From an uncultured Rhizobium sp. (GTDB lineage Bacteria; Pseudomonadota; Alphaproteobacteria; Rickettsiales; UBA1997), in assembly GCA_964444545.1 (NCBI GenBank), contig CAYUHG010000003.1, forward strand, positions 36,106 through 100,105: a stretch of 64,000 nt of DNA, given 5' to 3'. Positions 4,848 to 56,942 of the stretch are shown in pieces (position 1 is the stretch's first letter; each line of letters starts with the position of its first letter). A program made the position numbers and the translations under genes. Under the pieces are notes generated by a model that was not told the origin of the DNA, did not search any database, and worked only from the letters and a program-made list of their open reading frames with translations.

Positions 4848-4858
4848 AAATTTTGAGT

Positions 4859-39959: not shown

Positions 39960-42830
39960 TTGTCGACATCAAATCCGCAAAATATTTCTGGCTCAGAAAA
40001 CAATAACTCAAAACGTCAGGGTTTTTTGTTTCCTGTAAAAAAATTACGTCTTGGATCTTTTTGGGATAATATTTTTTACCAACTCACCATCATCTATTTT
40101 GGCAGAAATGAATATTACCAAGAAAAAATAGTCAGACGCAGCAACGACGATCCAAACTATCCAAGAAGATTTAACAAAATTTATAAACGTTACAAAAAAA
40201 TTCACCGACCAAAAAATAAAGTCGAAAGCAAAATGGACTTAGCGCAGTCCTACACAATTTTCTCCTGCGTTTTGTTGCTACTGATTCTAAGCTTACTAAC
40301 CATAAACACTTTCGTAGTTTATCGCGGATTTTGGTATAACCTCGACAATCAAGTTAAATTCCAAAGCGGCGTTATTGAAAAAGCCTCAACCTCTTTGATG
40401 GGTGCTGTAGATAACTATATCAACTATGTCGGCGACAAACTTCTTACTCTTAAAGGCGAGAAAGACAAAAACACAATCGCACACATTTTACAAAAAACTC
40501 TAAACCGTGATGCGCTGCAAAAAAACGTCTCTTCATGGATTAACATTAGCTTCGTCAACAATGATGGTAAAGTAATCATCACTTCTGATGAAGGAGTTTT
40601 AAAAACACCAATTGATCCAAACGGTTATTTTCCTGTGCGTGAAGCAAAACAGAAAAATGCTTGGCGCTTAAAAGTTGGGCAACTCACTCACATCGAAACT
40701 GACATCGCTTCTTATAACATGCTTCCAGTAGCGATGCGTATCGACTATGACGATTTGAAACCAATCGGAACTTTCATCGCACAACTTCCAACCGAAGTTA
40801 TTCAAAGACAAATCGATTGGGTTTTCGGTGATGAAGATATTTGCTACATTGTAATCGACGATCATTTCGACATGCTGGCACATTCGGCAAGCTTTGATCC
40901 TCAGGCCTTTAACAAACCTTTCTTACGTTCGAAAAATTTCCTTCACGATATTTTTGATCAAACTTTGGCGAATGATTTTCTGCCTGAACGATTTAAAATG
41001 GGCGAATGTGTATTTACTTATTCACAAAAATCTGTCGGATATCACCTCGCCACACTTACTGGCTATCATCAAAAGAAATCTTGGAAAAATCTTACCTTCC
41101 AACTTTTGATTTCAGTAGGTCAATCTGCCGCCGTAGCATTTCTTTTCATGACAACAATTTTCATTTTCAAGAGAGTGAAAATTGGACCATTCGTAACTGA
41201 ATTAATTAAAGCTCGTATCGCTGCCGAAGCTGCCAGTGTAGCGAAAAGCCAATTCCTTTCTAACATGTCGCACGAGTTGCGAACTCCGATGAACGGAATT
41301 ATCGGTATGAGTCAAGCTTTGAAAGATTCCGGTAAATTAGGTGATGAGGAACAAGATCAAATTAACACTATTTATCGCTCTTCCGATGCACTTTTGATTA
41401 TCCTAAACGACATTCTGAATTTCTCTAAAATCGAAGCCAAGAAAGTTGATCTCGAACAAATCAATTTCAATCTACGTTCATTGGTTGAAGACATCGCAGA
41501 TTTAATGTCAGTTACTGCCAACAATAAAGGTTTGGAAGTGATCGTTGATATCAGCAAAGAATTGCCAGAAAACCTGATTGGCGATCCGGGAAGAATTCGT
41601 CAAATCACTACTAACTTAGTAAATAACGCCATCAAATTTACTTCTTACGGACAAATTTTGATTCAGATCAAATTAGATAGAGTTGAGAACGACAAATATT
41701 TCGTAAACTTCAACATAAAAGACAGTGGCATCGGTATTGATCCAGCAAAGATCGGAACCATGTTCACTAAATTTACACAAGCCGACATGTCGACCACCCG
41801 AAAATATGGCGGAACTGGTTTAGGACTTTCAATTTGCAAAGAATTAACTGAATTGATGCACGGTCAAATTGGTGTCGTCAGCGACTTTGGACAAGGTTCA
41901 AATTTCTGGTTCACTTTGCCGTTACCAAAATCTGAAAGCGAAGCACAAGACTTATTCATCGAACAGAAAAAACAATTAGCCGGCCGCAAAGTTGCAGTTG
42001 TTGAAGACAACATTATCGCCAAAAAAGTTTTGGAAGGAAATCTCAGCGACTTACAAATGACTCACTGCGTTATCAGCACCCATGACATCGATTCTGCAGA
42101 AGATAAAATTAATTTTGCCGTCAGTGAACTAGAAAAATTTGCTGGATGTGAAGCAATATTAATCAGTCACAACTCTTTTTTTGGAATCAATTCTCTCGAT
42201 TTGGCTGAACGTATTCGTAGTAATGAGAAATTGAAAAATATTCCTCTGATACTGGTAATTCTGCTGCAAGAAAAAATCAAAATTCCGCCAGAAAAATTAA
42301 AATTATTTGATCGCATCATTGCCAAACCAATCAAGATGAATCGCTTGCTACAAGCTTTGTTCTTCGCTCTCAAAATCACTTATTACGAAGAAGAAGGTGT
42401 GTTGATTGAGAAAGGTGTTGCCAAAATTGAAGATCAACAAACTAAAGGCATGAAATTGTTGTTGTGTGAAGACAATGAAGTAAACATGAAAGTTGCGACG
42501 ACAATTTTAAAACGTATGGCCTTCAATATTGAATTTGCTGAAAACGGTCAAGAAGCGCTCAACAAATTCCTTCACGTTAAATATGACGTAATTCTGATGG
42601 ATTGTATGATGCCAATTATGGATGGATTTGAAGCGACAAAACGTATTCGCGAAATCGAAAAAGAAACTGGCGCACAACCAACTTGTATCATTGCATTAAC
42701 CGCAAACGCTACGGAAGAAGATCGTAAAAAATGTTTAGAACTTGGCATGAACGATTTCGTTTCCAAACCAATCAAACGCGAATCAATCGAAGAAGTAATG
42801 AAACGCTGTTTTAAGAATAGTAAGCAGTAA
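39960..42830 (+). CDS. Hybrid sensor histidine kinase: periplasmic Cache-like domain, HisKA, HATPase_c, pseudo-receiver, receiver
   Basis: TM helices around res 100-120 and 385-405 flank a ~260-aa extracytoplasmic domain. H-box [19 protein letters not shown]-box [26 protein letters not shown], and the final receiver [13 protein letters not shown] ... SKP. The start is uncertain: TTG 39960 or ATG 40233. Confidence 0.85.
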
Positions 42831-42852
42831 GTCATTCAAGTTACAAATCACA

Positions 42853-42892
42853 AAAAAAAGCCGCTGCAACTTTTCAGTTACAGCGGCTTTTA
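42853..42892. terminator. Bidirectional rho-independent terminator
   Basis: A-run, then stem gccgctgcaact (42860-42871) / agttacagcggc (42876-42887) with one mismatch, then tttt. Lies between the convergent hybrid kinase and FadL-like genes. Confidence 0.65.
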
Positions 42893-42918
42893 AACTTCAA
42901 AAGAAGATTTTTTAAAAA

Positions 42919-44139
42919 CTAAAATTCTTTTTTCAAAGCCAGCGAGAACACATCCACTTTGGTTTTGTAGTGAACGTTGATATCTTGAGTTGTACTGCCA
43001 TTTCCTTTCAAATTAGTAACGGCATTTCTGTAGAATTGATGTAAGTAAGTTGCGTCAACTGACAATGTTTTTGAGAATTTATAATTGAAACCAATTGAAG
43101 TCCAAACTTTGTCCGATGAAGGAACTGCCGGATTTCTGTTGGCATCAGTCATCGCTTCTTTTTCATAAGCCAAACCAGTTCTTAGCAACCATTTGTCGTT
43201 AAGTGTGAAATTGGCACCAACTGAATGTAAGAAAGAATCATGCCAGTTGAAAGATGAAGTCGCACTTAAGTTTGAATTTTGATAAGCATTAACTTGCAAA
43301 CTTTTCAAACGTGACCAACGCGTCCAAGTTAAATCATAAGCCAATTCAGTTGCCGGATTTAATTTGTAAGCTGTACCAATAGTTAAAGATTCTGGTGTCG
43401 AAGTTTTAGCCTGCATGTCCGAATATCCAAAGCCATGCGCTTGAACAGTTCCAACGATATTGTGATCGATTTTTGAACGATAACCAATACCAAATTTCAG
43501 ATTTTCTGTTGCCTGATATTTTGCACCCAAATTGAAACCATAACCCCAATCGCTACCTTGAACTTTAGTGTAATAAGTCGAAGCCGTGCTGCTAGTAAGT
43601 TGTGATCTATAATATTGCGCTTGGAAACCAGCACCCAAAGACAAATCTTTATTCACTTTATAAGAAACGCTTGGGTTGATGTTGATTGTTGTAATTGAAC
43701 TTGCGATCGCACGATCCAAACCTTGCCAATTATCAGTATATCTAGTTGCCAAACCAAATGGCGAAGTAATTGCTAAACCAAAAACCGCATCTTCGTTAAT
43801 TCTTTTCGCAACGTAAAGAGCTGGAACAACTCCATTTACACCGGCATCGTGAACGTTAGCAGTTTTTGAAGTTCCATCAGATTTGCTGCCGCCATTAGTA
43901 TTAATTTTTAAATCTAAATAGCTTGCCGACAAAACAAACTCACCATTCTCAACATCTGACAAAATAGCTGGGTTAAAAAACATATCGCTGACATCATGAA
44001 TACCAGTCACTGATCCGGCATAAGAGTTTGCCAAACCTGAAGTTGAAGTCAGTTCTGTAGAATAGCCAGCAGCCATAGCATCGCCACCAGCGATGACCAA
44101 AGCCAAAGACGTCACAAAAAGTTTTTTATTTAGTTTCAT
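42919..44139 (-). CDS. FadL/OMPP1/TodX family outer-membrane transporter for hydrophobic compounds
   Basis: Signal peptide, N-terminal hatch motif LANSYAGSVTGIHDVSDMFFNPA, an alternating beta-strand pattern, and C-terminal KKEF. Confidence 0.8.
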   Translation of the reverse strand: MKLNKKLFVTSLALVIAGGDAMAAGYSTELTSTSGLANSYAGSVTGIHDVSDMFFNPAILSDVENGEFVLSASYLDLKINTNGGSKSDGTSKTANVHDAGVNGVVPALYVAKRINEDAVFGLAITSPFGLATRYTDNWQGLDRAIASSITTININPSVSYKVNKDLSLGAGFQAQYYRSQLTSSTASTYYTKVQGSDWGYGFNLGAKYQATENLKFGIGYRSKIDHNIVGTVQAHGFGYSDMQAKTSTPESLTIGTAYKLNPATELAYDLTWTRWSRLKSLQVNAYQNSNLSATSSFNWHDSFLHSVGANFTLNDKWLLRTGLAYEKEAMTDANRNPAVPSSDKVWTSIGFNYKFSKTLSVDATYLHQFYRNAVTNLKGNGSTTQDINVHYKTKVDVFSLALKKEF

Positions 44140-44289
44140 AGATTTTTTTTATTGTTGAGAAGTAACACGATCAGCAAAAAAAATTGCTTGGTGAGCAGTT
44201 TCATAAACAACAAAAAAAATACACAACGCTATCGTCAGAGAAATTTACTAACAAAAACAAACTGTCACAAAATGCAAAACACCAATTTT

Positions 44290-46107
44290 CTAATGTGTTG
44301 TTGATTTAGTTAGATTCTTCGCAATCAGCTGCATCAAATAATCCGGCTCATCACCTTTGATAAAATAGTCGTTTATTGCAGAGTTTACACCACATTGATC
44401 ATCGTCACCACTAATTGCGATAATTGGGATCGCGTGCTTTTGATCAATTTTATTTTCCCTCTCCAAACTTCTAATTTCCGCTGCAACTTCATGACCATTT
44501 TTCAGCGGCATCGAAATATCAGTTAGAATCAAATCAAATTTTGATTCACCATTTTCGCTTAAATTATTTTTATAAATCTTCAGTAACTCATAACCGTTTC
44601 TGACCTTGGTAACATTCATGCCAAACGATGTCAGATTTGTTTCCATCGCAATCAAATTCAATTCGCGATCATCCGCAATCAACACTTCTTTTCCGCTTAA
44701 TAATTCGATTAAATCTGCACGAGATATTTTATTTTCTGGCAAAATTTCTGCTGGTTTTGAGCGAATATTTTTAACTTCAATTTGTGAAATTTGCGGAAAC
44801 AACAAACTAAATTTTGTCCAACCATTTTCTCTTTGGCCATTTTCTCTTTGGCCATTTTCTCTCCGGCTATTTTCACCTTCACCAAATTCTGATTCGCAAA
44901 TAATATCCCCACCAAATGCTTTCATATTGCGCCTACAAAATGCTAGCCCCAAGCCAGTTCCGCTTTTCTTTCCTGATGTATAAAAATCACCAAATAAATT
45001 TTCGATTTCTTGCGCAGCAATTCCCGGACCATTATCTTCAACGTAAATCACGTTATAGTTCTGACCCTTCAGAACTCTTTTTTCGATGCCGACTTTCACC
45101 ATCAAATTGGAAAATTGCGCATCGTAATAAAGTGAATTTTTCAAAAGATTATAAATGATGAATGACAGCCTGTCCGGCACAGCTTTGAAGAAAAAATCAT
45201 CCTGAGAATTTATCGATATCTTTACTTTTTTTCTTTCTTGCTGTTGTGCATAACCATATTGCTCAACAATCCGCGGCAAAATTTCACTCGCTCTTAAATA
45301 AGAAAATTCTGCAAAATTAATCGGTTTTTTCTGCAAGTCTGAGAGAGCAATATTAATAATTGCGTTGGCTTGTTTGATTGTGTCCGAAACCAACTGCATC
45401 GAATTTTCAATCTTAACAATATCAAAATTTTTAGAATTTTTGGCCTTCGATTTAACGTCCGAAATTGTTAAATTAATCGCATTCAAAGGATTACGCATTT
45501 CGTGAACTAGAGAAGCTGTAAGAGACAACATCTCACTATATAATTTTTCGATCGCCACCGCCCTGCCGCTATAATTAAAACACATGCCAACAAAGCCGCT
45601 GAAAACTATACAAATTAGATACGCTGAAACATCGAACTGCGGATGAAGATCAGAAAAATTTCCGCCACTAATCAAGAAAGCCAGAATCGCACCACCAACA
45701 CCAATCATTAAATCGATAAGATAAATCAACCAATTAGGCACACACAAAGCCAGCAACAAAACACCAAATATTTCCCAATAAAGCCAAACTTCGTGAAAGT
45801 TATTTTTCAGTAAATTGTAAGTGAAAACAAACGGCAAAGAATTGATCACCATCAAATGCCAATAAAATGGAAAATATTTTTCACGCAAGCGAGGCGACAA
45901 TAAATAATTTCCCGCCACACTAACACAAATTAGCGATGCCGCCAACCTTACATAAATATTTTCGTGAAGACCAAAAGCGTATTTATAAACAAAGTAAAAA
46001 ACAAAATGCGCAATCCCACCAGTCAAAGCAGCCGTAAGAATCGTCGGCTTACCAATCAAAGTTCCTTCTTGCCAGGCATTGATCAGAAACTGTTTTAGAT
46101 TCGACAC
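44290..46107 (-). CDS. Hybrid sensor kinase A: CqsS/LqsS-like multi-helix membrane sensor, kinase core, receiver
   Basis: GTG start. About 6 TM helices (YFPFYWHLMV, LPFVFTYNLLKNNFHEVWLYWE), H-box LVHEMRNPLNAI, IYNLLKNSLYY, GTGLGLAFCRRNMKAFGGDIICES, WTKFSLLFPQ, receiver LILTDISMP. The CqsS-likeness is judged from remembered motifs. Confidence 0.75.
   Translation of the reverse strand: MSNLKQFLINAWQEGTLIGKPTILTAALTGGIAHFVFYFVYKYAFGLHENIYVRLAASLICVSVAGNYLLSPRLREKYFPFYWHLMVINSLPFVFTYNLLKNNFHEVWLYWEIFGVLLLALCVPNWLIYLIDLMIGVGGAILAFLISGGNFSDLHPQFDVSAYLICIVFSGFVGMCFNYSGRAVAIEKLYSEMLSLTASLVHEMRNPLNAINLTISDVKSKAKNSKNFDIVKIENSMQLVSDTIKQANAIINIALSDLQKKPINFAEFSYLRASEILPRIVEQYGYAQQQERKKVKISINSQDDFFFKAVPDRLSFIIYNLLKNSLYYDAQFSNLMVKVGIEKRVLKGQNYNVIYVEDNGPGIAAQEIENLFGDFYTSGKKSGTGLGLAFCRRNMKAFGGDIICESEFGEGENSRRENGQRENGQRENGWTKFSLLFPQISQIEVKNIRSKPAEILPENKISRADLIELLSGKEVLIADDRELNLIAMETNLTSFGMNVTKVRNGYELLKIYKNNLSENGESKFDLILTDISMPLKNGHEVAAEIRSLERENKIDQKHAIPIIAISGDDDQCGVNSAINDYFIKGDEPDYLMQLIAKNLTKSTTH
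44823..44882 (-). repeat. In-frame 15-bp tandem repeat encoding (RENGQ)n inside kinase A
   Basis: On the + strand: ccattttctctttgg x2, ccattttctctccgg, then a degenerate unit. Protein reads GENSRRENGQRENGQRENGWTKF. Confidence 0.85.
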
Positions 46108-46223
46108 AGGAATTAAAATTTGGTTAAATTGAGATTGGGATGATGTGATTTATTACAAATGATTATCAACTTACGCAGTTCTTAAAATTTCACTTAAGCG
46201 CAACAGAAAACTAATTTTCAAAG

Positions 46224-47543
46224 ATGATCAATTTCGTAAAAAAAGCTTTTGCTGAAGGCACAAGTATAGAAAGATATAACATACTTGCCGCAGTTTTTTT
46301 AGGCTCACTTGCACATATGTCGCTGTGGTTTTTATACAGCTTTGTTTTTCCAATGAAGTTTGAGAGTTTTTATTTGAGATTATTTCTCTCAATTCTGTGC
46401 TCTGTAGCTTATTCTTACAAATATCTGCCACAAAAAATCAGAACTCACTATTTTCCAATTTATTGGCACTTCATGGTAATGATGGCTTTGCCTTGTCATT
46501 GCACGTTTCTTCTACTTATGAATGATTTTCATCCATCATATTTATATTGGGAAATTTTTTGTGTGGTCACCATGATAATTTATATACCACACTGGTTTGC
46601 TGCCCTGACAAATCTTTTTGTTTCTTTAGTTTTAGCAGTTGTTGCTTACTACATAATGTCTCCAGAACCATATTTGATAGGCCTTATTCATGGTTTTGAT
46701 TATGCGCCATATCTTTTGGTTTTTTCTTTTGCCACTTTTTCCAGTATGATTTTTTCTCATGCAAACAGAACTACCTGGCTGGAAAAACAACAAAAACAAC
46801 TAACCGCACTTGCCGGCTCGGTTGCTCATGAATTGCGCAATCCACTTGGCGTAATCAACTCGGCACAAACGCAAATCAATTTAGTTTCTCGCACTGTCAA
46901 ATCCGAAAATTTAGACAAGTTTAAAGACAAAATCCAAAACCTCGCGCACATCATCGCTGAATCTGTAGTTCAGGCCAACGACATCATCAACCTCACCTTG
47001 TCTGACGTTACGGGAAAAAAATTCAGCTCTGATCAAATTATCAACATCGACGCCAAAACTGTGATCAATGAAATAGTCGAGAAATTTGGTTACGAAAATT
47101 CTGAGCAAAAAAATATCATAAAAATAAAGATCGACTCCTCCAACAGCTTCAACTTCAAAGCCAACCATGAACGCTTCAGCTGCATCGCTTCCAACCTAAT
47201 CCAAAACTCTCTTTATTACCTCAAAGATTTTGCAAACCTTAACATCACAATCGGCACCGAGCAAAAAGATTTCTTAGGCCAAAAATACAACGTAATCTAC
47301 TTCCTAGACAACGGACCAGGAATCAAAACCGAAAACCTCAACAACATCTTCAATGACTTCTACACCGAAGGGAAAAATAACGGAACAGGGTTGGGTTTGT
47401 CTTTCTGTAAACGTAACATGAAAGCGTTTGGCGGAGACATCATCTGCGAATCACAATTCGGTAACGTATCAAACGGCAAAAGGGAAAATGGTTGGACGAA
47501 ATTTAGTTTGTTGTTTCCGCAAGTTTTTTATTCAACTCCATAA
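46224..47543 (+). CDS. Sensor kinase B: CqsS/LqsS-like membrane sensor and kinase core, no receiver
   Basis: N-terminal YNILAAVFLGSLAHMSLWFLYSFVFPMKFESFYLR, YFPIYWHFMV, LMNDFHPSYLYWE. H-box AGSVAHELRNPLGVI, GTGLGLSFCKRNMKAFGGDIICES, WTKFSLLFPQ. Confidence 0.75.
   Translation: MINFVKKAFAEGTSIERYNILAAVFLGSLAHMSLWFLYSFVFPMKFESFYLRLFLSILCSVAYSYKYLPQKIRTHYFPIYWHFMVMMALPCHCTFLLLMNDFHPSYLYWEIFCVVTMIIYIPHWFAALTNLFVSLVLAVVAYYIMSPEPYLIGLIHGFDYAPYLLVFSFATFSSMIFSHANRTTWLEKQQKQLTALAGSVAHELRNPLGVINSAQTQINLVSRTVKSENLDKFKDKIQNLAHIIAESVVQANDIINLTLSDVTGKKFSSDQIINIDAKTVINEIVEKFGYENSEQKNIIKIKIDSSNSFNFKANHERFSCIASNLIQNSLYYLKDFANLNITIGTEQKDFLGQKYNVIYFLDNGPGIKTENLNNIFNDFYTEGKNNGTGLGLSFCKRNMKAFGGDIICESQFGNVSNGKRENGWTKFSLLFPQVFYSTP
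46809..47526 (+). repeat. Copy 1 of a ~720-bp near-identical direct repeat (kinase core of B)
   Basis: Aligns colinearly with 52842-53574 at an offset of 6033 nt. By eye there is no difference over 46947-47317. The identical antisense ORFs in the track (46911-47168 and 52977-53201) confirm this. Confidence 0.85.
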
Positions 47544-47827
47544 ATCTCTTTTTGAAACACTGTTTGGAATATCTTGAAATCAGCCATTCTGGCAGTTGTG
47601 TTTTTTTGGGATAAGAATTTTTTAATCTAATCAGATTGGCGTCTTCTTTAGATTATTATAACTCAAAAACCCTCACTTCTAAAGTTAGATTCAGTCTTCA
47701 ACTAAATTGTCTAATACAAAGGCAATAAATTTTTACAGCACTTGCGATTTTCTAATTCAAGAGCTGTGAATTTCTTCAAATACACCTCAGAGTTAGCGTT
47801 TTTTTAAACTAAAAATGGGAACAAAAA

Positions 47828-48796
47828 ATGCAAATCGCAGCTCGTGTTGAATCAAATTACTGTGATCGTAATTTTGTACATAATTTAAGCAAAAATATAA
47901 AAAGTTTGAGCTTTTCTGAAATTTTTTTATTTGCTTTAAAACAGGCAAAAAAAGTCGAAATATCTGAGGTACTTAAAAAAATATGTGTTTCACCTCCATA
48001 TTTTGCATTTCAGGAAATCTATCGATACGAATCTTTTCTGATAGCTCCTATTACTCCACAACAAGTAATAGAGTTTGAAAGCACTCCAATGTCTTCCGCT
48101 GAAGCTGGTAGACACCTAGCAATATTGGGAAGCTGTTCTTTAGCTATTGATGAAGTTGAAAAAAATTATTATTTAGCTCACAAAGCTCTTAAAAAAATAG
48201 GATCTGATTTCAAAAACACTGAAAAACTATATGTTGTTGCCTGCCCTAGTTTATCAGAAAATGACAAGGGTTCGGCATCTTCTGCTTATACAGCTTTAGT
48301 TAATCAAAACGGAGACATAATATTTGAAATGGATATCCTATTCCAGAAAGTTTCAGTCAGACTTTTTAACAGAATATTCAAAGAGCATCTAAGAGAAACG
48401 CAATCTATTGACTACAATCCTTACGAGAAAGTTGTGCGTTTAATAAATATCACGGAGACTAATTCTGGAATCAAAGCTGAACTACCATTAATGAACGACT
48501 CAGAATGTTCTGGTCATTTTGATGGGGCTCCTATGTTACCAGTTGGAACTATGTCTTACATAATTACAAATCATATTGGTAATTTTCTTAGAAAGATTGA
48601 TGGACAATCAAATGGTAGATATTCATTAGTTAGTGCTGATTTAGAACTATTTGAACCAACAAATATAAGAAAAAGAGAATTCGTAGAAATAAATTATGGT
48701 GGAAAAATTGATAACGTTCACAATATCTCATGGGTTGTCAGAGGAGAATCCGGAAAAGAAAGAAATAGAATGCAGTTATTTTTTACCCATAAGTAA
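47828..48796 (+). CDS. Hypothetical protein with FabA/FabZ/AfsA-like hot-dog signature (possibly double hot-dog)
   Basis: GGGA lies 7 nt upstream of the ATG. The C-terminal half has CSGHFDGAPMLPVGTMSYIITNHIG (compare FabZ GHFPxxPVMPGV). The N-terminal half has AEAGRHLAILGSCSLAI. No other family recognised. Confidence 0.4.
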   Translation: MQIAARVESNYCDRNFVHNLSKNIKSLSFSEIFLFALKQAKKVEISEVLKKICVSPPYFAFQEIYRYESFLIAPITPQQVIEFESTPMSSAEAGRHLAILGSCSLAIDEVEKNYYLAHKALKKIGSDFKNTEKLYVVACPSLSENDKGSASSAYTALVNQNGDIIFEMDILFQKVSVRLFNRIFKEHLRETQSIDYNPYEKVVRLINITETNSGIKAELPLMNDSECSGHFDGAPMLPVGTMSYIITNHIGNFLRKIDGQSNGRYSLVSADLELFEPTNIRKREFVEINYGGKIDNVHNISWVVRGESGKERNRMQLFFTHK

Positions 48797-48823
48797 GTTT
48801 CGTTTTTTAGAGAGGAAATAAGG

Positions 48824-51439
48824 TTGTTGGTCGAAAAAATAGAGTACAATAAATATAATGTACTTGCTCTAGGGTTTCTTGCCACACTAGGACATCCTTC
48901 ATTTTGGATTATTTACACATACATTATTCCTCAAAAGTTTGAGAGTTTATATCTCAGAGGCTTTGGTTTTCTAAGCTGTCTAATCCTACTGCTTTTAGTT
49001 ACCTTCAAAAAGCATTTTGGCAGAGCTGAGATTTGTTACTGGATATTGTGTCTAGTATATAATCTCCCCTTCTTTTTCACAGTTACCCTAATAAACAATG
49101 ATTTTAGTGCTGTTTGGCTTGCGGCGGAAGTGGTGATGTTTGTTGTGATGATAATGGCTGTAGAAGGGTTATTAACGGCGATTTTTCTGATATTACTAGG
49201 AATAGTATCTGCTGTAGTTTTTTGTTCACAGTTTTATCCAGAAAATACGATATATCATCAAGTTATATTTGATATCATACCAATCTCTTTTTTTGGCATC
49301 GCAACTGCTGCAATATTCGGATATAGTAACGTCCAGGGTATGTCGATTAGCAAAGATGTAAAATATAAAAATGCCACCAACCTTCTTAAATCACTAGCTG
49401 GGTCAATTGCACATGAGATTAGGAATCCTCTCAATACAATAGATTTTGTTAGTTCACAGATGAATGATTTGCTAAAGAATGATCATAACTTAACGCAAGT
49501 AGAAGAAAAAATACTGTCTTTCAACTCTCAGATTTCAGATGCGGTCTCGAGCTCCAATAGGATCATAAATATGATACTAAGTGACTTGAGAGATTCTCCA
49601 ATTAGTGAACAAGATTTTTCTTATTTAAGTTCACAAGAAATTTTACATAAAATTATCAACAAATATGGCTATAAAACTACTGAAGAACGTAATAAAGTAA
49701 TATTTGATACATCTCTAACCGACAAAGGTTTTATCCTCCGAGTAGTAGAAGAACGCTTTACATTTGTAGTATACAATCTTCTCAAAAATGCACTTTACTA
49801 CTTAAAAGAATATCCAGATTCGACAGTTAGAATTGGTGCAGAATCTAAAGAAATAAATAATGTTATTTGGAATGTAATTTACATTCATGACACTGGTCCA
49901 GGAATTCCTAAAGATATAATTCCAAAACTATTTAATGACTTCTACACCTCTGGCAAAAAAGATGGAACAGGTCTCGGTTTGTCATTTTGTAAACGTAACA
50001 TGAAAGCATTTGGTGGCGACATCATCTGCGAATCAGAGCTTGGAAAATGGACTAAATTTAGTCTTTTATTTCCGAAGGTAGATCAGGATCTAATCAATCA
50101 AGAAGCCAATCAAATTTCTGACATAAACTCCGACGATAAAACGAAGAACAAACCATTCATCGCAATAGATAAAGATTCGGGAAAAACCAAAATTCTTTTG
50201 GTTGATGACGAGCAAACTAATCTTTTGATCACCAAGGCGATGATTGAAAAAAATCTCAATATTTTATGTGAGTTGGCTCATAGTGGAAAAGAGGCAATTG
50301 AGATTGAATCGCACCACATCGAGGATCATAAATTAATCATCACCGATATTCAGATGATGGAAACAAATGGAATTAGCGCTGCTAAAAATATCCGCGCTTT
50401 CAACAAAGAAATCCCGATTATTGCCCTTACCTCACTTGAATATGAAGATTTACAAAAAAACGATCACAATTATTTCAGCGATCATTTAAGCAAACCAGTG
50501 TCTGGGCATATTCTTTATCGAACTATTTCCAAATTTATTCCCGACTTAAAAGACAATATTGATTATCTAGGCGTTCCAGATCAGTACCTTCCTGACATCA
50601 AATCGAAGAAAATTTTGATCGTTGACGACCAAGAGCTGAATCTTTCGATTTTCTCGAAAAAAATGCAAAATCTTGGCATGGAAGTAACTAAAGCCACTGA
50701 TGGAAAAGAGATGGTGGAAGTATATCAAAATAGCTTAATTGAAGTCTTGGCAGAGGATGCTGAAAAAATCATTAAATCACAATTCGACATCATCGTAACT
50801 GACGTAAACATGCCAATCATGTCAGGAACTGATGGTGCAAAAAAAATTAGAGAAATCGAATCATCGAAAAACATTTCTTACAAAAATCGTATTCCAATTA
50901 TTGCTTTAAGTGGCGATGGCACTGAAGAAGACATAAAACATTTCTTCGAAGCCGGAATGAGCGACTATTTCATCAAAGGTTCGGACGTAAATAAGTTGAT
51001 CAAGATCATTACGATTTATCTCAATCCGGATAAGTCTTACAAAAGCTTGAATCACAAAAAAGAAGATGAAGATCTACACCATAAAATTGCTAACCAAATC
51101 AGTCATGAAGAAGACAATGACCAAATTCTTAATCAGGAAAAAATCATGCAATTCAGCAACGAAGATCGTCATGAGTTTCTGAAAATATTTTTAGAAGGCA
51201 GTCAAACTCAATTGAATAAGATTAAGCAAACTATTAGCGCTAACGACAATAAAGAGCTCTCTATCGCTTTACATGCTTTAAAAGGAATATCCGGCAACAT
51301 CGGCGCGGAGAGAGTATTCGCAGTGGTAACCAGAACTGATTATAATCTAAAAAATAACATCGCGGTTGGCGAAAATTGGTACGAAGAATTAAATACCGAA
51401 TATGAAAAGCTAAAATCGGAGATATCGAAGATTTTATAA
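48824..51439 (+). CDS. Hybrid sensor kinase C: CqsS/LqsS-like sensor, kinase core, two receivers, C-terminal Hpt
   Basis: TTG start with agagga 7 nt upstream. YNVLALGFLATLGHPSFWIIYTYIIPQKFESLYLR, AGSIAHEIRNPLNTI, GTGLGLSFCKRNMKAFGGDIICES, receivers LIITDIQM and IIVTDVNMP, Hpt motif LHALKGISGNIGA. Confidence 0.8.
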   Translation: MLVEKIEYNKYNVLALGFLATLGHPSFWIIYTYIIPQKFESLYLRGFGFLSCLILLLLVTFKKHFGRAEICYWILCLVYNLPFFFTVTLINNDFSAVWLAAEVVMFVVMIMAVEGLLTAIFLILLGIVSAVVFCSQFYPENTIYHQVIFDIIPISFFGIATAAIFGYSNVQGMSISKDVKYKNATNLLKSLAGSIAHEIRNPLNTIDFVSSQMNDLLKNDHNLTQVEEKILSFNSQISDAVSSSNRIINMILSDLRDSPISEQDFSYLSSQEILHKIINKYGYKTTEERNKVIFDTSLTDKGFILRVVEERFTFVVYNLLKNALYYLKEYPDSTVRIGAESKEINNVIWNVIYIHDTGPGIPKDIIPKLFNDFYTSGKKDGTGLGLSFCKRNMKAFGGDIICESELGKWTKFSLLFPKVDQDLINQEANQISDINSDDKTKNKPFIAIDKDSGKTKILLVDDEQTNLLITKAMIEKNLNILCELAHSGKEAIEIESHHIEDHKLIITDIQMMETNGISAAKNIRAFNKEIPIIALTSLEYEDLQKNDHNYFSDHLSKPVSGHILYRTISKFIPDLKDNIDYLGVPDQYLPDIKSKKILIVDDQELNLSIFSKKMQNLGMEVTKATDGKEMVEVYQNSLIEVLAEDAEKIIKSQFDIIVTDVNMPIMSGTDGAKKIREIESSKNISYKNRIPIIALSGDGTEEDIKHFFEAGMSDYFIKGSDVNKLIKIITIYLNPDKSYKSLNHKKEDEDLHHKIANQISHEEDNDQILNQEKIMQFSNEDRHEFLKIFLEGSQTQLNKIKQTISANDNKELSIALHALKGISGNIGAERVFAVVTRTDYNLKNNIAVGENWYEELNTEYEKLKSEISKIL

Positions 51440-51452
51440 TATTCCAAAACAA

Positions 51453-53579
51453 ATGTTCTCTGTCGTTCCAGCTGTCGTTGCTCTCTATTTTCTTCTTGTT
51501 GGGATTTTTGTAGTTCGGCAGAATCGAGGCAATCTTTTAGCTAAAACATTCTGTGCGATATGTGTGACTACTTTTAGTTGGCAGTTTGTTTGGTCCATTC
51601 TTTATCAAACTAAAAACCCTGAAAATGCTTATCTTTTAACTAAGATTGGTTGGATCTTTATACTTTTTTTACCTACTACAGCCTATCATTTTCTTATAAC
51701 CTTAAGTAACAAAAAATCTGAACTTAAGTTCGTTTATTTTTCTTATTTAGTCTCAGCACTTTTTCTATTCACCCTTCCTTCTGATTTAATGCTTGCTGGT
51801 GTTTATCAGTACTACTGGGGCTTTTATCCAAAAGCTGGAATACTACATCCCCTTCACGTTCTACAAACTGTTATTGTGGTGCTTAGAGGTTTATACGTAA
51901 CTTATCTGAAACAAAAAACATGCGATGATTACAAAACCAAATCACAATTACGATATTGTGTAGTCGCAATTTTCATATTCTTGATTGCCGCAATCGATTA
52001 TTTAGGAAATTATGGTCTAAATGTTTATCCATTCGGAATCGCTTTTCTCAGCACTTCGCTCACAATAATTTGCTACGCAATCGTACAACACCGCATCCTC
52101 GACTTAGATCGCGTTTTCATCCTTATCACAGCTCGAATCGTAATCTATTTATGTTTCTTAGGATTATTCGTGTGCTATGGATTTTTCTTTCTCGAAAATG
52201 ATGAATGGCAAAATTTCTATTTCTTCATTGCTGTCGCCGCAATTTTAGTATTGGTGTGCGAGACTTATTCCTACGTTATCCGCAGAGTCGAAAATCTTTT
52301 AAAAGTTATAATGATTCGACGTAAAGAAAGTGAAGATTGGAAAGATCTGCTGATTCGTCAATTAAATGAATCTTATTCTCTCGATCAGCTATATCACAAT
52401 ATGGAGTGGTTCTCGAAAAATGTTCTCGAAGTAAATCTAACCGGATTTTTTATCAGAAGTGATTTGCGCGGTAATGACAATTCGTCACATTATTTTGACT
52501 TGCTCAATCGCAATTATTTTGCTGGTTTTAGCCGAAGTTTTGCTAGCGAAGTACTTAAATCTAAAGCTCCAATTGAGAGAATTGATTACCCGAAAGAGTT
52601 AGAAGATCTAAAATCCAGCAAGGTTTTTGTACCTTTTATTCGCAATCAAGAAATCTCCGGATTTATGTTGGTTGATGCCAAAAAATCACTACAATTTCAA
52701 CACTACGAAATCTTTAATTTGTTGATTAGCCAAGTTGCTTTAACAGTTGATCGGATCTTGGCTTATCAAGAAATTTCACTGCAGAAACAAGAATTACAAA
52801 AGCAGGAATTTATTCGTGAAAAAGCCGAATCTTTAAGATCACTTGCTGGCTCAGTTGCTCATGAATTGCGCAATCCACTTGGTGTGATTAACTCGGCGCA
52901 GACGCAAATCAACTTGGTTTCTCGCAGTGTCAAATCCGAAAATTTAGACAAGTTTAAAGACAAAATCCAAAACCTCTCACACATCATCGCTGAATCTGTA
53001 GTTCAGGCCAACGACATCATCAACCTCACCTTGTCTGACGTTACGGGAAAAAAATTCAGCTCTGATCAAATTATCAACATCGACGCCAAAACTGTGATCA
53101 ATGAAATAGTCGAGAAATTTGGTTACGAAAATTCTGAGCAAAAAAATATCATAAAAATAAAGATCGACTCCTCCAACAGCTTCAACTTCAAAGCCAACCA
53201 TGAACGCTTCAGCTGCATCGCTTCCAACCTAATCCAAAACTCTCTTTATTACCTCAAAGATTTTGCAAACCTTAACATCACAATCGGCACCGAGCAAAAA
53301 GATTTCTTAGGCCAAAAATACAACGTAATCTACTTCCTAGACAACGGACCTGGAATCAAAACCGAAAACCTACAAAACATCTTCAATGACTTCTACACCG
53401 AAGGAAAAAACAACGGAACAGGACTGGGCTTGTCTTTCTGTAAACGTAACATGAAAGCCTTCGGCGGAGACATCATCTGCGAATCGCAACTCGGCAACGA
53501 AATAAATGGCCAAAGAGAAAATGGCCAAAGAGAAAATGGATGGACGAAATTTAGTTTGTTGTTTCCGCAAGTTTCATAA
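51453..53579 (+). CDS. Sensor kinase D: 7-TM (HisKA_7TM-like) sensor, uncharacterised linker domain, then a kinase core nearly identical to B
   Basis: The N-terminal ~280 aa form about 7 helices unrelated to the A/B/C/E sensors. Res ~290-450 are soluble (GAF/PAS-like?). From LAGSVAHELRNPLGVIN to the end it is nearly identical to kinase B. Confidence 0.8.
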   Translation: MFSVVPAVVALYFLLVGIFVVRQNRGNLLAKTFCAICVTTFSWQFVWSILYQTKNPENAYLLTKIGWIFILFLPTTAYHFLITLSNKKSELKFVYFSYLVSALFLFTLPSDLMLAGVYQYYWGFYPKAGILHPLHVLQTVIVVLRGLYVTYLKQKTCDDYKTKSQLRYCVVAIFIFLIAAIDYLGNYGLNVYPFGIAFLSTSLTIICYAIVQHRILDLDRVFILITARIVIYLCFLGLFVCYGFFFLENDEWQNFYFFIAVAAILVLVCETYSYVIRRVENLLKVIMIRRKESEDWKDLLIRQLNESYSLDQLYHNMEWFSKNVLEVNLTGFFIRSDLRGNDNSSHYFDLLNRNYFAGFSRSFASEVLKSKAPIERIDYPKELEDLKSSKVFVPFIRNQEISGFMLVDAKKSLQFQHYEIFNLLISQVALTVDRILAYQEISLQKQELQKQEFIREKAESLRSLAGSVAHELRNPLGVINSAQTQINLVSRSVKSENLDKFKDKIQNLSHIIAESVVQANDIINLTLSDVTGKKFSSDQIINIDAKTVINEIVEKFGYENSEQKNIIKIKIDSSNSFNFKANHERFSCIASNLIQNSLYYLKDFANLNITIGTEQKDFLGQKYNVIYFLDNGPGIKTENLQNIFNDFYTEGKNNGTGLGLSFCKRNMKAFGGDIICESQLGNEINGQRENGQRENGWTKFSLLFPQVS
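52842..53574 (+). repeat. Copy 2 of the ~720-bp near-identical direct repeat (kinase core of D)
   Basis: See 46809-47526. Contains one extra 15-bp unit relative to copy 1. Confidence 0.85.
53493..53540 (+). repeat. In-frame 15-bp tandem repeat in kinase D
   Basis: ggcaacgaaataaat (degenerate), then ggccaaagagaaaat x2 (53508-53537). Protein reads GNEINGQRENGQRENGWTKF. Confidence 0.8.
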
Positions 53580-53737
53580 GATATTAATAAAACCTCATTA
53601 CGAGAAGCACAGCCAGCCGGAAATCCAGTTTTAGATAGATTCTGGATTAACACGCTACGCTAACGATAACGAAGTGAATCGATATTTTTCATCGAATCAT
53701 AATCAAAAATTCGAGAACAATCATAAATATTACAAAC

Positions 53738-55567
53738 GTGTTTTTAGAGTACTTTGCGAACAAATTATCCAGCACCACTAAACTAGCAAAGTACAACATA
53801 ATAGCTCTTGGTGTAATAGGAACTTTTGGTCATCCATTGTACTGGGCGATATGGACTTATATTTTTCCTCAGCCATACGAAAATGTTTTTATAAGATTTT
53901 CTGCCGCAATTGCGTGCTTAGTTCTTTTATTGAACGAATATTTACCAGAAAGAACCAAAAGATATTTTCCAACCTATTGGTTTTGTGCTGTGATTTATGC
54001 ATTACCATTTTTGTTCACAGTGCATTTGATAAAGAATAATTTTTCGGACATCTGGATGATGTGCGAAGTTGGAATGGGTTTTATGGTTATTATATTCATT
54101 CCCGATGCATTATTGATGCTTTTAAATATTATACTGGGAGTAGTTCTGGCCATATGGTTTTGCAATATCTTCCCAGAAACATCTTCCGTAGTTTTAGAAA
54201 ATGGTGTCAGATTTTTTCCAGGAGATAAATATATTCCGATATGGACTTTTTTATTAGTTGCTGGCCCAGTTTTTAGTAACAGTGGAATCCTTGGCGCAAC
54301 ATATGAAAGGGCTAACAAAGTTCTAAGATATTCTTTAGCCATCGCCGGCTCAATCGCCCATGAATTACGTAATCCAATCAACACAATAAACTTAACTGGA
54401 ACACAGATTAAGAATTTGTTGAATCAAAGTTCTGATTTTAACAACAAAGAAAAAATCAGCTCTCTCACCGATCAAATTTCAGATTCAATTTCTGAGGCGA
54501 ATAACATCATCAATATTATCTTGAGCGATTTAAGCGAAAATCCGATTGATGACAAAGATTTTGTATTTTTACAGCCCAATTTGATAATTCCAAAAATAGT
54601 TCAGAACTACAGCTACAAGAATCAAGACGAGAAAAATTGCGTTCAACTTATCGTTAGTCCAAGTAATGATTTTACAATTAAAGCCGTTCCCGAGCGCTTC
54701 ACTTTTATCATCTATAATTTGCTCAAAAACGCTCTTTATTACTTGAATCAATATACTGATTTAAAAATCACAATTGGTGCCGAGGTCAGAGAAATCAAAG
54801 GAGTAAAATGGAATACAATTTACGTCCACGATACTGGCCCGGGAATTTCTCCAGAAATTATTTCGAAACTGTTTGATGATTTTTACACCAACAACAAAAA
54901 AGACGGAACCGGTTTGGGTTTGTCTTTTTGCAAACGCAACATGAAAGCGTTCGGCGGCGACATCATCTGCGAATCGCAATTCGGCAACGGAGCAAATTGT
55001 TGGACGAAATTTAGTTTATTGTTCCCACAAATTCAGCTTCCTACAGATCATAAATTTGACAATAAAATAACCCTTCAACCAACCAAAAACCCAAACAATT
55101 CAATGACTAATTTAAACACAAAAAATATTTCCGATTTTTCCGAGCTGCTCGCCAATAAAAAAATTCTTATTGCCGACGATCACGATCTCAGTCTTAAAAC
55201 GATGCAAGGTTGGTTAGAATGTTATGGCTGTGAAGTTTCTACAGCATTGAATGGCGAAGATTTAGTGCGCGCTTACAAAAACAATCTGGATCAAAATTAT
55301 AAATCAAATTTCGATCTGATTATTACTGATTTTTGTATGCCAATTAAAAATGGCGATGAAGTTGTTAGAGAAATTCGCGAACTGGAAAAGCAAAATAATG
55401 TTTCATCATGCAACGCCATTCCGATAATTGTTGTCAGCGGCAATGATGATAGAGAAACTATCAATACACTTCAAAAATTCCACTCTACCAAAAATTTCGT
55501 TAAAGGAGATAATTTAGAAAATCTTCTCGAAATTATCCTAGATCTTACAACGATCAGACAAATCTAA
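53738..55567 (+). CDS. Hybrid sensor kinase E: CqsS/LqsS-like sensor, kinase core, receiver
   Basis: GTG start. YNIIALGVIGTFGHPLYWAIWTYIFPQPYENVFIRF, YFPTYWFCAV, LPFLFTVHLIKNNFSDIWMMCE, AGSIAHELRNPINTI, GTGLGLSFCKRNMKAFGGDIICES, receiver LIITDFCMP. Confidence 0.8.
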   Translation: MFLEYFANKLSSTTKLAKYNIIALGVIGTFGHPLYWAIWTYIFPQPYENVFIRFSAAIACLVLLLNEYLPERTKRYFPTYWFCAVIYALPFLFTVHLIKNNFSDIWMMCEVGMGFMVIIFIPDALLMLLNIILGVVLAIWFCNIFPETSSVVLENGVRFFPGDKYIPIWTFLLVAGPVFSNSGILGATYERANKVLRYSLAIAGSIAHELRNPINTINLTGTQIKNLLNQSSDFNNKEKISSLTDQISDSISEANNIINIILSDLSENPIDDKDFVFLQPNLIIPKIVQNYSYKNQDEKNCVQLIVSPSNDFTIKAVPERFTFIIYNLLKNALYYLNQYTDLKITIGAEVREIKGVKWNTIYVHDTGPGISPEIISKLFDDFYTNNKKDGTGLGLSFCKRNMKAFGGDIICESQFGNGANCWTKFSLLFPQIQLPTDHKFDNKITLQPTKNPNNSMTNLNTKNISDFSELLANKKILIADDHDLSLKTMQGWLECYGCEVSTALNGEDLVRAYKNNLDQNYKSNFDLIITDFCMPIKNGDEVVREIRELEKQNNVSSCNAIPIIVVSGNDDRETINTLQKFHSTKNFVKGDNLENLLEIILDLTTIRQI

Positions 55568-55574
55568 AATCATC

Positions 55575-56942
55575 ATGAGAATGCTGGCAGCACAAGAATC
55601 TTGGCCATTTAGAAGCTATTTCATTTTTCTTATTCTCACCAGTTTTCTTGGAATTATTGCCTTAGGATTGGCAATTTTTTTGTTAGAAAAATCGGCTGCA
55701 ACTCCAGCAATTTTAGCCATCTATTTTGCTTTTTTCGTAATGGTTGGAACTTTTTTTACGGTTCTTTTCACCTTCAGAAAAAAAATATCGGAAGTAGCAA
55801 AAAAAGAACTGCTATTAAGTCAATTTTTACAAAGAAGTAATCTCTCTAAAACCACTTTTATCAAGTCTGCCAGCCATGATATTAAAAATTATGTATTCGG
55901 AATTTCTGGCCTACTTAAATTGATTTTACACAACAAAACTGAAGCAGAAATTAAAGCCAATGACGATCTAAAAATGATCGAAGCGCTGCAGCTTAAGTCG
56001 GAAGAATTAATGCGTTTTGTCGAAGATTTATTTGATACCAATCAAGATGAATGTGATGATCTAGATCCAAGCTACAGAAGGTTGTGTAACGTTATTGATC
56101 TAGCCCAAAGAATGGTGATTCTGAACAAAAATTTCGCCATGAAAAATCGAGTTAATTTGGAATTCGACAACAAAACCAATAACCAAATTGTTAAGGTTGA
56201 ATGTAACACCAAGCGCTTGAAACAAATTCTGCAAAATCTGATTCGTAACGCCATAAAATCTAGTGCCATCAATGACCTGGTAATCGTACAAATCTCGGCG
56301 ATTAATAATCATGTGCAAATTTCAGTAATCGATCAAGGCAACGGCAACAGCACAGATTCAATCAAAGATGCAAATTTAGATCAGCTCGATCCTCACAATT
56401 TGAGCTTTAATAACATGAGAAATTTGATCGAATCTTATCACGGCAAATTCGAGATAAATGCCGTAAAAGGTTATGGAACTGAAGTAAAAATTAATATTAT
56501 TGCGGCTCAAGATCACAACAGCTCTGAGCAAAAATTATACTCAGAAAATAGTATTGATAACAGCTTCGAAAACAAAGCAGTTCTGGTTGCAGAAGATAAT
56601 TTAATCACCAGTAAAGTTATAACTTTTCTGCTGCGCAAAATGGGTTTCAAAGTTAAGCATGTTGATAACGGCGCGGAAATTTTAGAACAACTCGACAATC
56701 AACATTTCGACCTAATTTTTCTCGACATCAATATGCCAAAACTTGGTGGATTTGAAACGGCTAAAACTATTCGCGAAGGCAAAGTTTTTAAGAGATTCAA
56801 AAATTACAACATTCCAATTATCGCAATCAGCACCGAGAAACAGCAGCTTTCTGACCTTAAAAATCACGGCATTAACATGATGCTTGGTAAACCATTTTCC
56901 GAAAAAGAGTTGATCGATTTTGTGATGGAATATGTGAAATAA
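55575..56942 (+). CDS. Hybrid kinase-like protein F: two TM helices, H-box, HATPase_c lacking a G2 box, receiver
   Basis: H-box FIKSASHDIKNYVFGISG, N-box LIRNAIKSS, G1 DQGNG. No GxGLGL-type G2 box is present; PHNLSFNNMRNLIESYHG sits in its place. The receiver has LIFLDINMP and LGKP. Confidence 0.7.
   Translation: MRMLAAQESWPFRSYFIFLILTSFLGIIALGLAIFLLEKSAATPAILAIYFAFFVMVGTFFTVLFTFRKKISEVAKKELLLSQFLQRSNLSKTTFIKSASHDIKNYVFGISGLLKLILHNKTEAEIKANDDLKMIEALQLKSEELMRFVEDLFDTNQDECDDLDPSYRRLCNVIDLAQRMVILNKNFAMKNRVNLEFDNKTNNQIVKVECNTKRLKQILQNLIRNAIKSSAINDLVIVQISAINNHVQISVIDQGNGNSTDSIKDANLDQLDPHNLSFNNMRNLIESYHGKFEINAVKGYGTEVKINIIAAQDHNSSEQKLYSENSIDNSFENKAVLVAEDNLITSKVITFLLRKMGFKVKHVDNGAEILEQLDNQHFDLIFLDINMPKLGGFETAKTIREGKVFKRFKNYNIPIIAISTEKQQLSDLKNHGINMMLGKPFSEKELIDFVMEYVK

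Follow-up and report, generated by a model that had tools for sequence, protein, structure and literature searches.

This study concerns a 64,000-nucleotide stretch of DNA (hereafter, the window) from contig CAYUHG010000003.1 of an uncultured Rhizobium sp. that is placed in the Rickettsiales (UBA1997) by GTDB. Within an array of sensor kinases, the window carries a gene (47828–48796, + strand) that starts with ATG and encodes a double hot-dog protein of 322 residues. The protein belongs to a sizeable, unannotated family that is spread over many phyla, and in close relatives its gene is tightly and consistently linked to that of a CqsS-like hybrid kinase. Its C-terminal half is related to the FabZ/FabA dehydratases, and in two proteins a domain of the same family is fused behind the acyl carrier protein (ACP), in one of them at the end of a polyketide synthase (PKS). 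We tentatively favor, with a confidence somewhat short of even, an enzyme that off-loads acyl chains from ACP and whose lipophilic product feeds the adjacent CqsS-like receptor.

The initial annotation of this DNA had proposed a hot-dog fold, and structural modeling confirmed it as a double hot dog. An AlphaFold2 (AF2) model was built from a 50-sequence family alignment (A1), and it has a predicted local distance difference test score (pLDDT) of 91 and a predicted template modeling score (pTM) of 0.90. The protein is predicted to be cytoplasmic, with no transmembrane (TM) or other hydrophobic segment. According to DSSP, helix 90–106 is wrapped by strands 113–176 in lobe 1, and helix 239–258 is wrapped by strands 265–321 in lobe 2. 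The long central helix in an antiparallel sheet, which characterizes the hot-dog superfamily, is present here in duplicate. A Foldseek search of the Protein Data Bank (PDB) gave 399 matches at E ≤ 1e-3, and the matches listed (50 of 399) all represent either hot-dog proteins or synthases with hot-dog domains. The top matches are themselves double hot dogs: the dehydratase chain of a fatty acid synthase (FAS; 2cf2_C, the best match), TesB, FatA, PKS dehydratases, and LnmK. The template modeling scores (TM-scores) of these matches are only 0.45–0.61; therefore, they identify a fold and not one family.

The two halves of the protein differ in what they resemble. The N-terminal half comprises approximately residues 45–186 (47960–48385, +), as delimited by the secondary structure of the model; it opens with an invariant PPYF strand motif and has no His motif. 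Modeled alone, it forms a single hot dog (pLDDT 87) with 127 Foldseek matches, the closest of which are the PaaI/YbdB/4HBT thioesterases and FabZ (TM-scores of 0.55–0.67). Its profile found chance matches only among PDB sequences, and a comparison of the two halves by hhalign detected no internal duplication. The C-terminal half comprises residues 187–322 (48386–48793, +). The A1 profile matched FabZ in PDB entries 1u1z (2e-7) and 4zw0 (2.4e-7) over profile positions 179–292, that is, in the C-terminal half only. Weak sub-threshold matches to the Pfam FabA model were found in five of the 50 family members. The best member reached 18.7 bits against a gathering cut-off of 23 for PF07977, and the window protein gave no match.

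As a single query, the protein gave no meaningful match in Pfam, NCBIfam, or the PDB sequences, and a homolog search returned 81 proteins, all of them unnamed or "hypothetical". An exhaustive search with the family hidden Markov model (HMM) over 1.84 billion representative proteins (clusters at 50% identity) yielded 738 clusters at E ≤ 1e-3 and 396 clusters at E ≤ 1e-30. The best 150 of the 738 clusters are all stand-alone proteins of 273–391 residues, and no extra domains were found in the members with N-terminal extensions. The hosts include Promicromonospora, many myxobacteria, Bacteroidota, Pseudomonas, Paraburkholderia, Inquilinus, Nitrospirales, Waddliaceae, Planctomycetota, and Deinococcus. 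Since no Pfam or NCBIfam model matches the family, the earlier suggestion that the protein may define a new one holds.

Both motifs listed in the initial annotation are present in the protein. AEAGRHLAILGSCSLAI occupies residues 91–107 of the N-terminal half (48098–48148, +) at the start of the central helix and contains the invariant residues E92, R95, and H96. CSGHFDGAPMLPVGTMSYIITNHIG occupies residues 227–251 of the C-terminal half (48506–48580, +) and contains the candidate catalytic residue His230, the near-invariant Cys227, and Tyr244, which stands at the position of the catalytic Glu of FabZ. In a residue-level alignment, the GHF of the C-terminal half falls on the GHF of FabZ, and His230 stands opposite the catalytic His. 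The column of the catalytic Glu, 14 residues past the His, holds Tyr244 in the window protein and Y, S, G, H, or Q across the family. The assignment of this region to the active site of FabA/FabZ-type dehydratases was thus upheld for the relationship itself (2e-7) and for the retained His of GHF, but not for the Glu, which is replaced.

Conservation is concentrated around these motifs. In the N-terminal half, P57 and Y58 of the PPYF strand motif are invariant, as are E92, R95, H96, and the following AIL at the start of the central helix (50/50 and 193/193 sequences), and Y115 is near-invariant (189/193). The linker contains the near-invariant residues F180 (191/193), P198, and Y199. In the C-terminal half, C227 is found in 186 of 189 sequences, G229 and F231 flank the conserved H230, and P238 is never substituted (186/186, with 7 gaps). 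The pattern E[AV][GS]RHLAIL served to retrieve the loci, and residues of the C-terminal half played no part in the retrieval. The conservation of the candidate catalytic residues, as expected from the initial annotation, was borne out by H230, which is kept in 186 of the 188 homologs with a residue at this position. The helix of the C-terminal half has no conserved Glu or Arg. Because the column of the FabZ Glu is variable in this half, any acid would have to come from the N-terminal half, where E92 is the candidate. In FabA/FabZ and in YbdB-type thioesterases, the His and the Glu or Asp of opposite subunits face each other. A single composite site may likewise exist here, with His230 in the loop of the C-terminal half facing the start of the N-terminal helix (E92/R95/H96). 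At the motif level, E-A-G-R-H is intermediate between E-A-M-A-Q of FabZ and E-T-x-R-Q and E-A-A-R-Q of ScbA.

A comparison with FabZ/FabA (PF07977; 1u1z and 4zw0) shows how far the relationship extends. Homology to these enzymes is found in the C-terminal half, where the G-H-F...P-x-x-P loop and its catalytic His have been retained. The packing of the two lobes resembles the FabA/FabZ dimer, and the best Foldseek match, 2cf2_C, was presumably modeled on the FabA dimer. The substrate class may also be the same, namely acyl-ACP. However, FabZ and FabA are single hot dogs of approximately 150 residues that assemble into homodimers or hexamers, while the window protein is one fused chain of 322 residues. 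Their Glu, 14 residues past the His in cis, is used in trans in the homodimer, whereas this position is variable (Tyr/Ser/Gly) in the present family and a Glu is found only on the helix of the N-terminal half. The last residue of the motif is Gly in FabZ/FabA and Val in the window protein, and the N-terminal half carries E-x-x-R-H, with neither the His nor detectable similarity to FabZ.

Fusions give an indication of the substrate. The post-ACP end of a PKS is the usual place of chain-release domains. Locus L131 (2–5578, +) contains one open reading frame (ORF) of 1,859 residues with an acyltransferase (AT), a dehydratase (DH), an enoylreductase (ER), a ketoreductase (KR), and an ACP domain, followed by a short linker and a full hot-dog-family domain at the C-terminus. 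This terminal domain matches the family HMM at 1.8e-45 and retains E, R, H, and CAGHF. A second fusion, P0213, consists of a KR tail, an ACP, and a hot-dog-family domain that is 42% identical to that of L131. The type I PKS module of L131 ends in this domain instead of a thioesterase. The post-ACP position of both domains is where release domains sit, and a comparable off-loading domain is the thioester-hydrolase domain of 6-methylsalicylic acid synthase (6-MSAS), which is absent from the Foldseek matches. In the gladiostatin PKS, a double hot-dog AfsA-like domain in the same post-ACP position releases ACP-bound chains (PMC7756379). From the fusions, we therefore argue that the family acts on carrier-protein-bound acyl thioesters and off-loads them. 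The hot-dog-family domain may be an unrecognized PKS chain-release domain and may represent chain-release chemistry of its own.

The gene context was examined in 11 close loci with identities of about 35–91% (the window, L089, L087/L090, L081, L084, L086, L145, L146, L147, L148, and L001). The expectation that homologs would neighbor CqsS-like kinases was fully borne out in this neighborhood survey: in 11/11 loci, the hot-dog gene is followed immediately, on the same strand, by a gene for a CqsS-like 6-TM hybrid kinase of the layout HK(-RR-Hpt). The gaps between the two genes, where measured, are −8, −4, 0, 0, 2, 3, 27, 27, and 84 nucleotides (nt), and in L001 the body of a split kinase lies 396 nt downstream. 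In the latter locus (approximately 8270–10100), the CqsS-like kinase is divided into a 145-residue sensor fragment and a 457-residue kinase, which may reflect a frameshift or a pseudogene. In the window, kinase C starts 28 nt past the last base of the hot-dog stop codon, and kinase B, the hot-dog gene, and kinase C are all on the + strand, in agreement with the initial annotation. A local terminator scan found no terminator-like site between the hot-dog stop and the kinase C start, and the two genes are probably co-transcribed. Scans for promoters, terminators, repeats, and Rfam families around the hot-dog gene gave nothing above chance. In three of the 11 loci (L081, L146, and L147), the gene immediately preceding the hot-dog gene encodes a FadL ortholog, so that FadL seems to be a third conserved component of the module.

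The array in the window contains seven sensor kinases in 17 kb (39960–56942), identified by Pfam matches, N-terminal alignment, and comparison with CqsS. It begins with a dCache hybrid kinase (39960–42830), the architecture of which recalls that of Vibrio cholerae CqsR. Between this kinase and kinase A, there is a gene for a FadL/TodX-family outer-membrane channel for hydrophobic compounds (42919–44139, −; Pfam Toluene_X, 2e-80). The hot-dog gene had been described as the only non-kinase ORF of the array, and the FadL/TodX gene contradicts this description. Kinase A (44290–46107, −) is a CqsS-like hybrid kinase. Kinase B (46224–47543, +), separated by 284 nt from the hot-dog gene downstream of it, is CqsS-like but lacks a receiver domain. 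Kinase C (48824–51439, +) has a TTG start and consists of a CqsS-like sensor with six TM segments (6-TM), HisKA, HATPase, and REC-REC-Hpt. Kinase D (51453–53579, +) is of the HisKA_7TM type (PF16927) and starts 14 nt after kinase C. Kinase E (53738–55567, +) is another CqsS-like hybrid kinase, and kinase F is a 2-TM hybrid. An ortholog of kinase D is found downstream in L146. The same locus contains two short ORFs (4706–6212; 260 and 247 residues) whose matches to kinases B and E are confined to the sensor and the beginning of HisKA.

The four paralogs A, B, C, and E have in common an N-terminal domain of approximately 185 residues with several hydrophobic segments, and the kinases downstream of the close hot-dog homologs have the same domain. 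In all four, a 6-TM sensor of approximately 180 residues precedes HisKA-HATPase(-REC), which is the layout of CqsS/LqsS-type receptors. A sequence taken to be the N-terminus of V. cholerae CqsS matched kinase E best in blastp (3e-23), followed by kinase C (2e-13) and kinases A and B (7e-7), and it matched an HMM of the window-type sensor domains at 1e-31. The homology itself was computed, and the label "CqsS" for these four kinases assumes that the CqsS sequence used is correct. The best NCBIfam match of the kinase cores was LuxN, far below the cut-off. No CqsA-like aminotransferase was found among the scanned window ORFs of suitable size, as the initial annotation had stated for CqsA/LqsA, and no aminotransferase of this type occurs in seven annotated relative loci. 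The window and L081 have the island flanks in common, with pheT on one side and HAD, cytochrome-c-assembly, and hisS genes on the other. This syntenic island holds seven kinases in the window and two in L081; therefore, the array has apparently grown by duplication in this genome. A HEPN-domain gene borders the kinase cluster in both the window (56955–57833, +) and L087 (5726–6601, −), where it is accompanied by a nucleotidyltransferase domain.

These observations can be combined into a putative pathway. The enzyme would take as its substrate an acyl chain bound as a thioester to a carrier protein; in this organism, acyl-ACP supplied by fatty-acid synthesis is the most likely candidate. One composite active site, made up of His230 from the CxGHF loop of the C-terminal half and Glu92, Arg95, and His96 from the N-terminal half, would off-load the chain. 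The release could be a simple hydrolysis, a dehydration combined with hydrolysis, or a transfer of the chain to a small acceptor. Dehydration plus hydrolysis is the reaction of RpfF, which uses another fold. The released product would be lipophilic and derived from a fatty acyl chain; it would partition into the membrane, where it may serve as the ligand, or a precursor of the ligand, for the CqsS-like 6-TM hybrid kinase from the same transcript. The 7TM kinase D, encoded after kinase C, may possibly respond to it as well, and the FadL channel may move it across the outer membrane. The hot-dog gene would then have the role and the position that cqsA, lqsA, luxM, or rpfF has beside the respective receptor gene, with a different fold. 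Gene context is what suggests that a signal is made or edited.

The layout has precedents in the CqsA/LqsA-CqsS/LqsS, LuxM-LuxN, and RpfF-RpfC pairs, in which the synthase gene also stands beside the receptor gene; the role of the hot-dog protein as the synthase would be the counterpart. The downstream kinases share the 6-TM sensor of CqsS, and a hydrophobic, acyl-derived ligand is expected for them. RpfC is, like the partner kinase here, a polytopic hybrid kinase with Hpt, and it is encoded beside an enzyme that acts on 3-hydroxyacyl-ACP. However, CqsA and LqsA have the fold of pyridoxal phosphate (PLP)-dependent aminotransferases and RpfF is a crotonase, whereas the present protein is a hot dog without an Aminotran_1_2 match. 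The protein falls outside both FabZ/FabA and AfsA in the membership tests, and its fold is unrelated to those of CqsA/LqsA and RpfF. It represents a new family within a known enzyme superfamily, its gene is arranged with a receptor gene in a way already familiar from synthase-receptor pairs, and a signaling role is plausible but unproven.

To our knowledge, the only ligands described for CqsS/LqsS receptors are alpha-hydroxyketones, which the PLP enzymes CqsA and LqsA produce. Many bacteria have receptors of this type but no known synthase, as documented, for example, in Legionella species lacking lqsA (PMC8023197). If these receptors have a second signal chemistry, the conserved operon of FadL, the hot-dog enzyme, and the CqsS-like kinase is a concrete candidate for it. 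A broader proposal is that the protein represents a new class of hot-dog autoinducer synthases, which replaces CqsA/LqsA for CqsS-type receptors in an AT-rich, probably host-associated clade with a dedicated FadL conduit and supplies ligands to unrelated polytopic transducers elsewhere in several phyla. We regard this generalization as doubtful. Apart from signaling, the approximately 740 clusters without a Pfam or NCBIfam model are of interest as double hot dogs with a putative split active site of an unusual kind. Ankyrin-repeat proteins are encoded in the window (29001–30263, −) and in the related contig L081 (20781–20921), and together with a GC content of 37% they suggest a host-associated (protist- or animal-associated) bacterium.

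We also surveyed the gene context across the whole family in 129 loci, which represent 69 clusters at 55% identity. Neighboring genes were identified by six-frame HMM searches and an ORF caller that takes into account the GC content at third codon positions (GC3); the calls are rough in high-GC loci. In L105, HisKA_7TM kinases flank the hot-dog gene on both sides, and in L061 the neighbor is a homologous kinase, with an N-terminal domain 50% identical to that of the L105 kinases. A 7TMR-DISM-SpoIIE phosphatase is found beside the hot-dog gene in L092, and a multi-TM methyl-accepting chemotaxis protein (MCP) in nine Saccharicrinis/Marinilabiliaceae loci. All of these partners, and those in Deinococcus described next, are polytopic membrane transducers encoded on the same strand as the hot-dog gene, and their input and output types are unrelated. 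On the Deinococcus megaplasmids L150 (3912–6837) and L149 (3934–6810), the hot-dog gene lies just downstream of a gene for a 5-6-TM GGDEF-EAL or GGDEF protein. The hot-dog gene is annotated there as "hypothetical protein", and the GGDEF partners constitute a fourth output class among the neighbors. In L028, a cytoplasmic GAF kinase is encoded upstream. An MCP in Pseudomonas locus L079 was left uncounted because it is 2 kb distant and not adjacent. The partner transducers were tested for a shared sensor domain and none was found; their sensors are not mutually homologous. PKS/FAS-type neighbors in the other loci are limited to zinc alcohol dehydrogenases in Promicromonospora and, in L129, a FabD-like gene.

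Several points weigh against an off-loading enzyme that supplies the receptor. Most family members have no transducer nearby; the hosts of such members are Promicromonospora, most myxobacteria, Pseudomonas, Paraburkholderia, Inquilinus, and Nitrospirales. Histidine kinase (HK) genes are only modestly enriched next to the hot-dog gene (10/124 adjacent versus 19/541 distant genes, odds ratio 2.4, p = 0.03). The predicted co-occurrence with kinases thus holds for all of the close loci but not for most of the wider family. Co-transcription with the kinase fits an accessory or output role equally well. The invariance of E92, R95, and H96 is inflated, partly by construction, because the loci were fetched with that motif. 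His230 and Glu92 are only predicted to be close to each other, and the N-terminal half has no significant sequence similarity to FabZ, to the C-terminal half, or to AfsA/ScbA. The absence of cqsA applies to 64 kb of this genome. Finally, a literature search in a limited library found no paper on the hot-dog family and none that ties a hot-dog protein to CqsS-type receptors or autoinducer synthesis.

One alternative is that the protein is an accessory sensor or modulator, which would bind or turn over an intracellular acyl thioester or lipid and regulate the transducer by contact, or would inactivate or edit an incoming lipophilic signal. Stand-alone H-NOX/NosP proteins encoded beside kinases, GGDEF proteins, and MCPs provide a model for this. 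The association with four partner output classes (HK, MCP, PP2C, and GGDEF-EAL) with non-homologous inputs is a pattern typical of accessory sensors, and in six close loci the stop and start codons of the two genes are only −8 to +3 nt apart, which suggests that the two proteins are made in stoichiometric amounts. However, a domain fused behind the ACP at the terminus of a PKS must act catalytically on an acyl chain that is tethered, and the near-invariant His, Glu, Arg, and Cys are enzyme-like. The partner sensors are nearly all polytopic membrane domains, which fits a product that partitions into the membrane, and the FadL linkage fits traffic of a hydrophobic molecule. We consider an accessory sensor unlikely.

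The protein could instead serve lipid metabolism, as a thioesterase or dehydratase involved in the remodeling of membrane or envelope lipids, and be regulated by the kinases, or merely encoded next to them, with no dedicated role in signaling. The many family members without an adjacent transducer agree with this, as do the short-chain dehydrogenases/reductases (SDRs), the FabD-like acyltransferase, and NDH-2 that are among the neighbors of some members. The structural neighbors are also thioesterases and dehydratases. TesB and FatA/FatB have a similar overall fold (Foldseek TM-scores of about 0.45–0.6), and the similarity to TesB and the acyl-ACP thioesterases, with TM-scores of 0.45–0.53, is structural only. 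No sequence-level match to TesB or to acyl-ACP thioesterases was found, apart from a single 4HBT_3 match in one of the 50 members (E = 0.039), and the His of the present protein sits in a FabZ-type loop. The N-terminal half resembles the PaaI/YbdB/4HBT thioesterases, the catalytic carboxylate of which is located at the start of the central helix. A role confined to lipid metabolism is difficult to reconcile with the pairing in 11/11 close loci over 35–91% identity, with overlapping or abutting frames. Moreover, neighbors such as an MCP, a PP2C phosphatase, or a GGDEF-EAL protein do not suggest transcriptional control of an enzyme. This account appears improbable to us.

The initial annotation had also mentioned AfsA-type enzymes. 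According to this possibility, the protein would be a synthase of phosphorylated butenolides, which transfers a 3-ketoacyl chain from ACP to dihydroxyacetone phosphate to give a butyrolactone- or butenolide-like signal. AfsA, ScbA, and BarX (PF03756) are likewise double hot dogs of approximately 300 residues with the same two-lobe plan and with E-x-x-R-[QH] on a central helix, and the E-A-G-R-H of the N-terminal half resembles the E-T-x-R-Q of ScbA/AfsA. These enzymes use acyl-ACP, make a lipid signal, and are encoded beside a receptor gene; the substrate and the signaling role proposed here would be analogous. A true AfsA-like domain occurs as the terminal domain after the ACP of the gladiostatin PKS, as in the hot-dog family (PMC7756379). 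An SDR is encoded downstream in L099 and L115, as in γ-butyrolactone clusters. We compared the family with six genuine ScbA/BarX proteins from Streptomyces plasmids, which were found with a presumed AfsA sequence as bait. In hhalign, the N-terminal half was in register with the six at E-x-x-R, and the register included the linker (LFxRxF versus VYRRLR). However, the probability was 0.5–1.2% (E of 0.04–0.11) with a shallow ScbA profile (Neff 2.3), and this similarity is not significant.

The remaining evidence separates the protein further from AfsA. None of the 50 members matches PF03756 at E ≤ 0.1, and neither does the L131 domain. E-x-x-R-Q is present in both repeats of AfsA/ScbA, whereas the hot-dog family has the corresponding motif only in the N-terminal half (E92-A-G-R95-H96). 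The second repeat of AfsA/ScbA has D-H-x-P-G-M...E-A-A-R-Q, and in its place the C-terminal half is FabZ-like with GHF. The L131 module is fully reducing (DH-ER-KR); therefore, its product would not be a 3-keto thioester. The partner of AfsA/ScbA is a TetR-type receptor (ArpA/ScbR), while that of the window protein is a membrane histidine kinase, and the hosts in the present case are Gram-negative, AT-rich bacteria. The link to AfsA is thus unsupported, with no PF03756 match and an hhalign probability of approximately 1%, and we judge an AfsA-type synthase very unlikely.

The codon usage of the hot-dog gene is unusual. The initial annotation had described both this gene and kinase C as rich in AGA, ATA, and TTA codons; comparison of GC3 and codon fractions with the background confirmed this for the hot-dog gene, and it is weak for kinase C. 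GC3 is 0.21 in the hot-dog gene (background 0.32 ± 0.05), ATA/Ile is 0.50 (0.09 ± 0.09), TTA/Leu is 0.50 (0.26 ± 0.08), and AGA/Arg is 0.73. Among the window ORFs, it has the highest ATA and TTA fractions, and its GC3 is tied for the lowest. Kinase C has a GC3 of 0.33, which is not unusual, and an ATA/Ile of 0.22. The GC3 of the hot-dog gene is equal to or lower than that of the downstream kinase in 9/9 related loci. The low GC3 and the codon set might suggest that the ORF is spurious, or that it is a pseudogene that has decayed within an AT-rich spacer, but the dN/dS values of 0.08–0.12 against the 91% and 80% identical orthologs, which indicate purifying selection, the approximately 740 homolog clusters, the confident fold, and the full length of the orthologs refute this reading and leave it a negligible probability.

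A second compositional outlier in the window is a DUF5672 gene (15478–16314, +), with a GC content of 0.30, an ATA/Ile of 0.42, and a TTA/Leu of 0.35. The ORF beside it (16318–17298) has no Pfam match. An ORF of 471 residues next to hisS (60974–62389, −), also without a Pfam match, has an AGA/Arg of 0.75.

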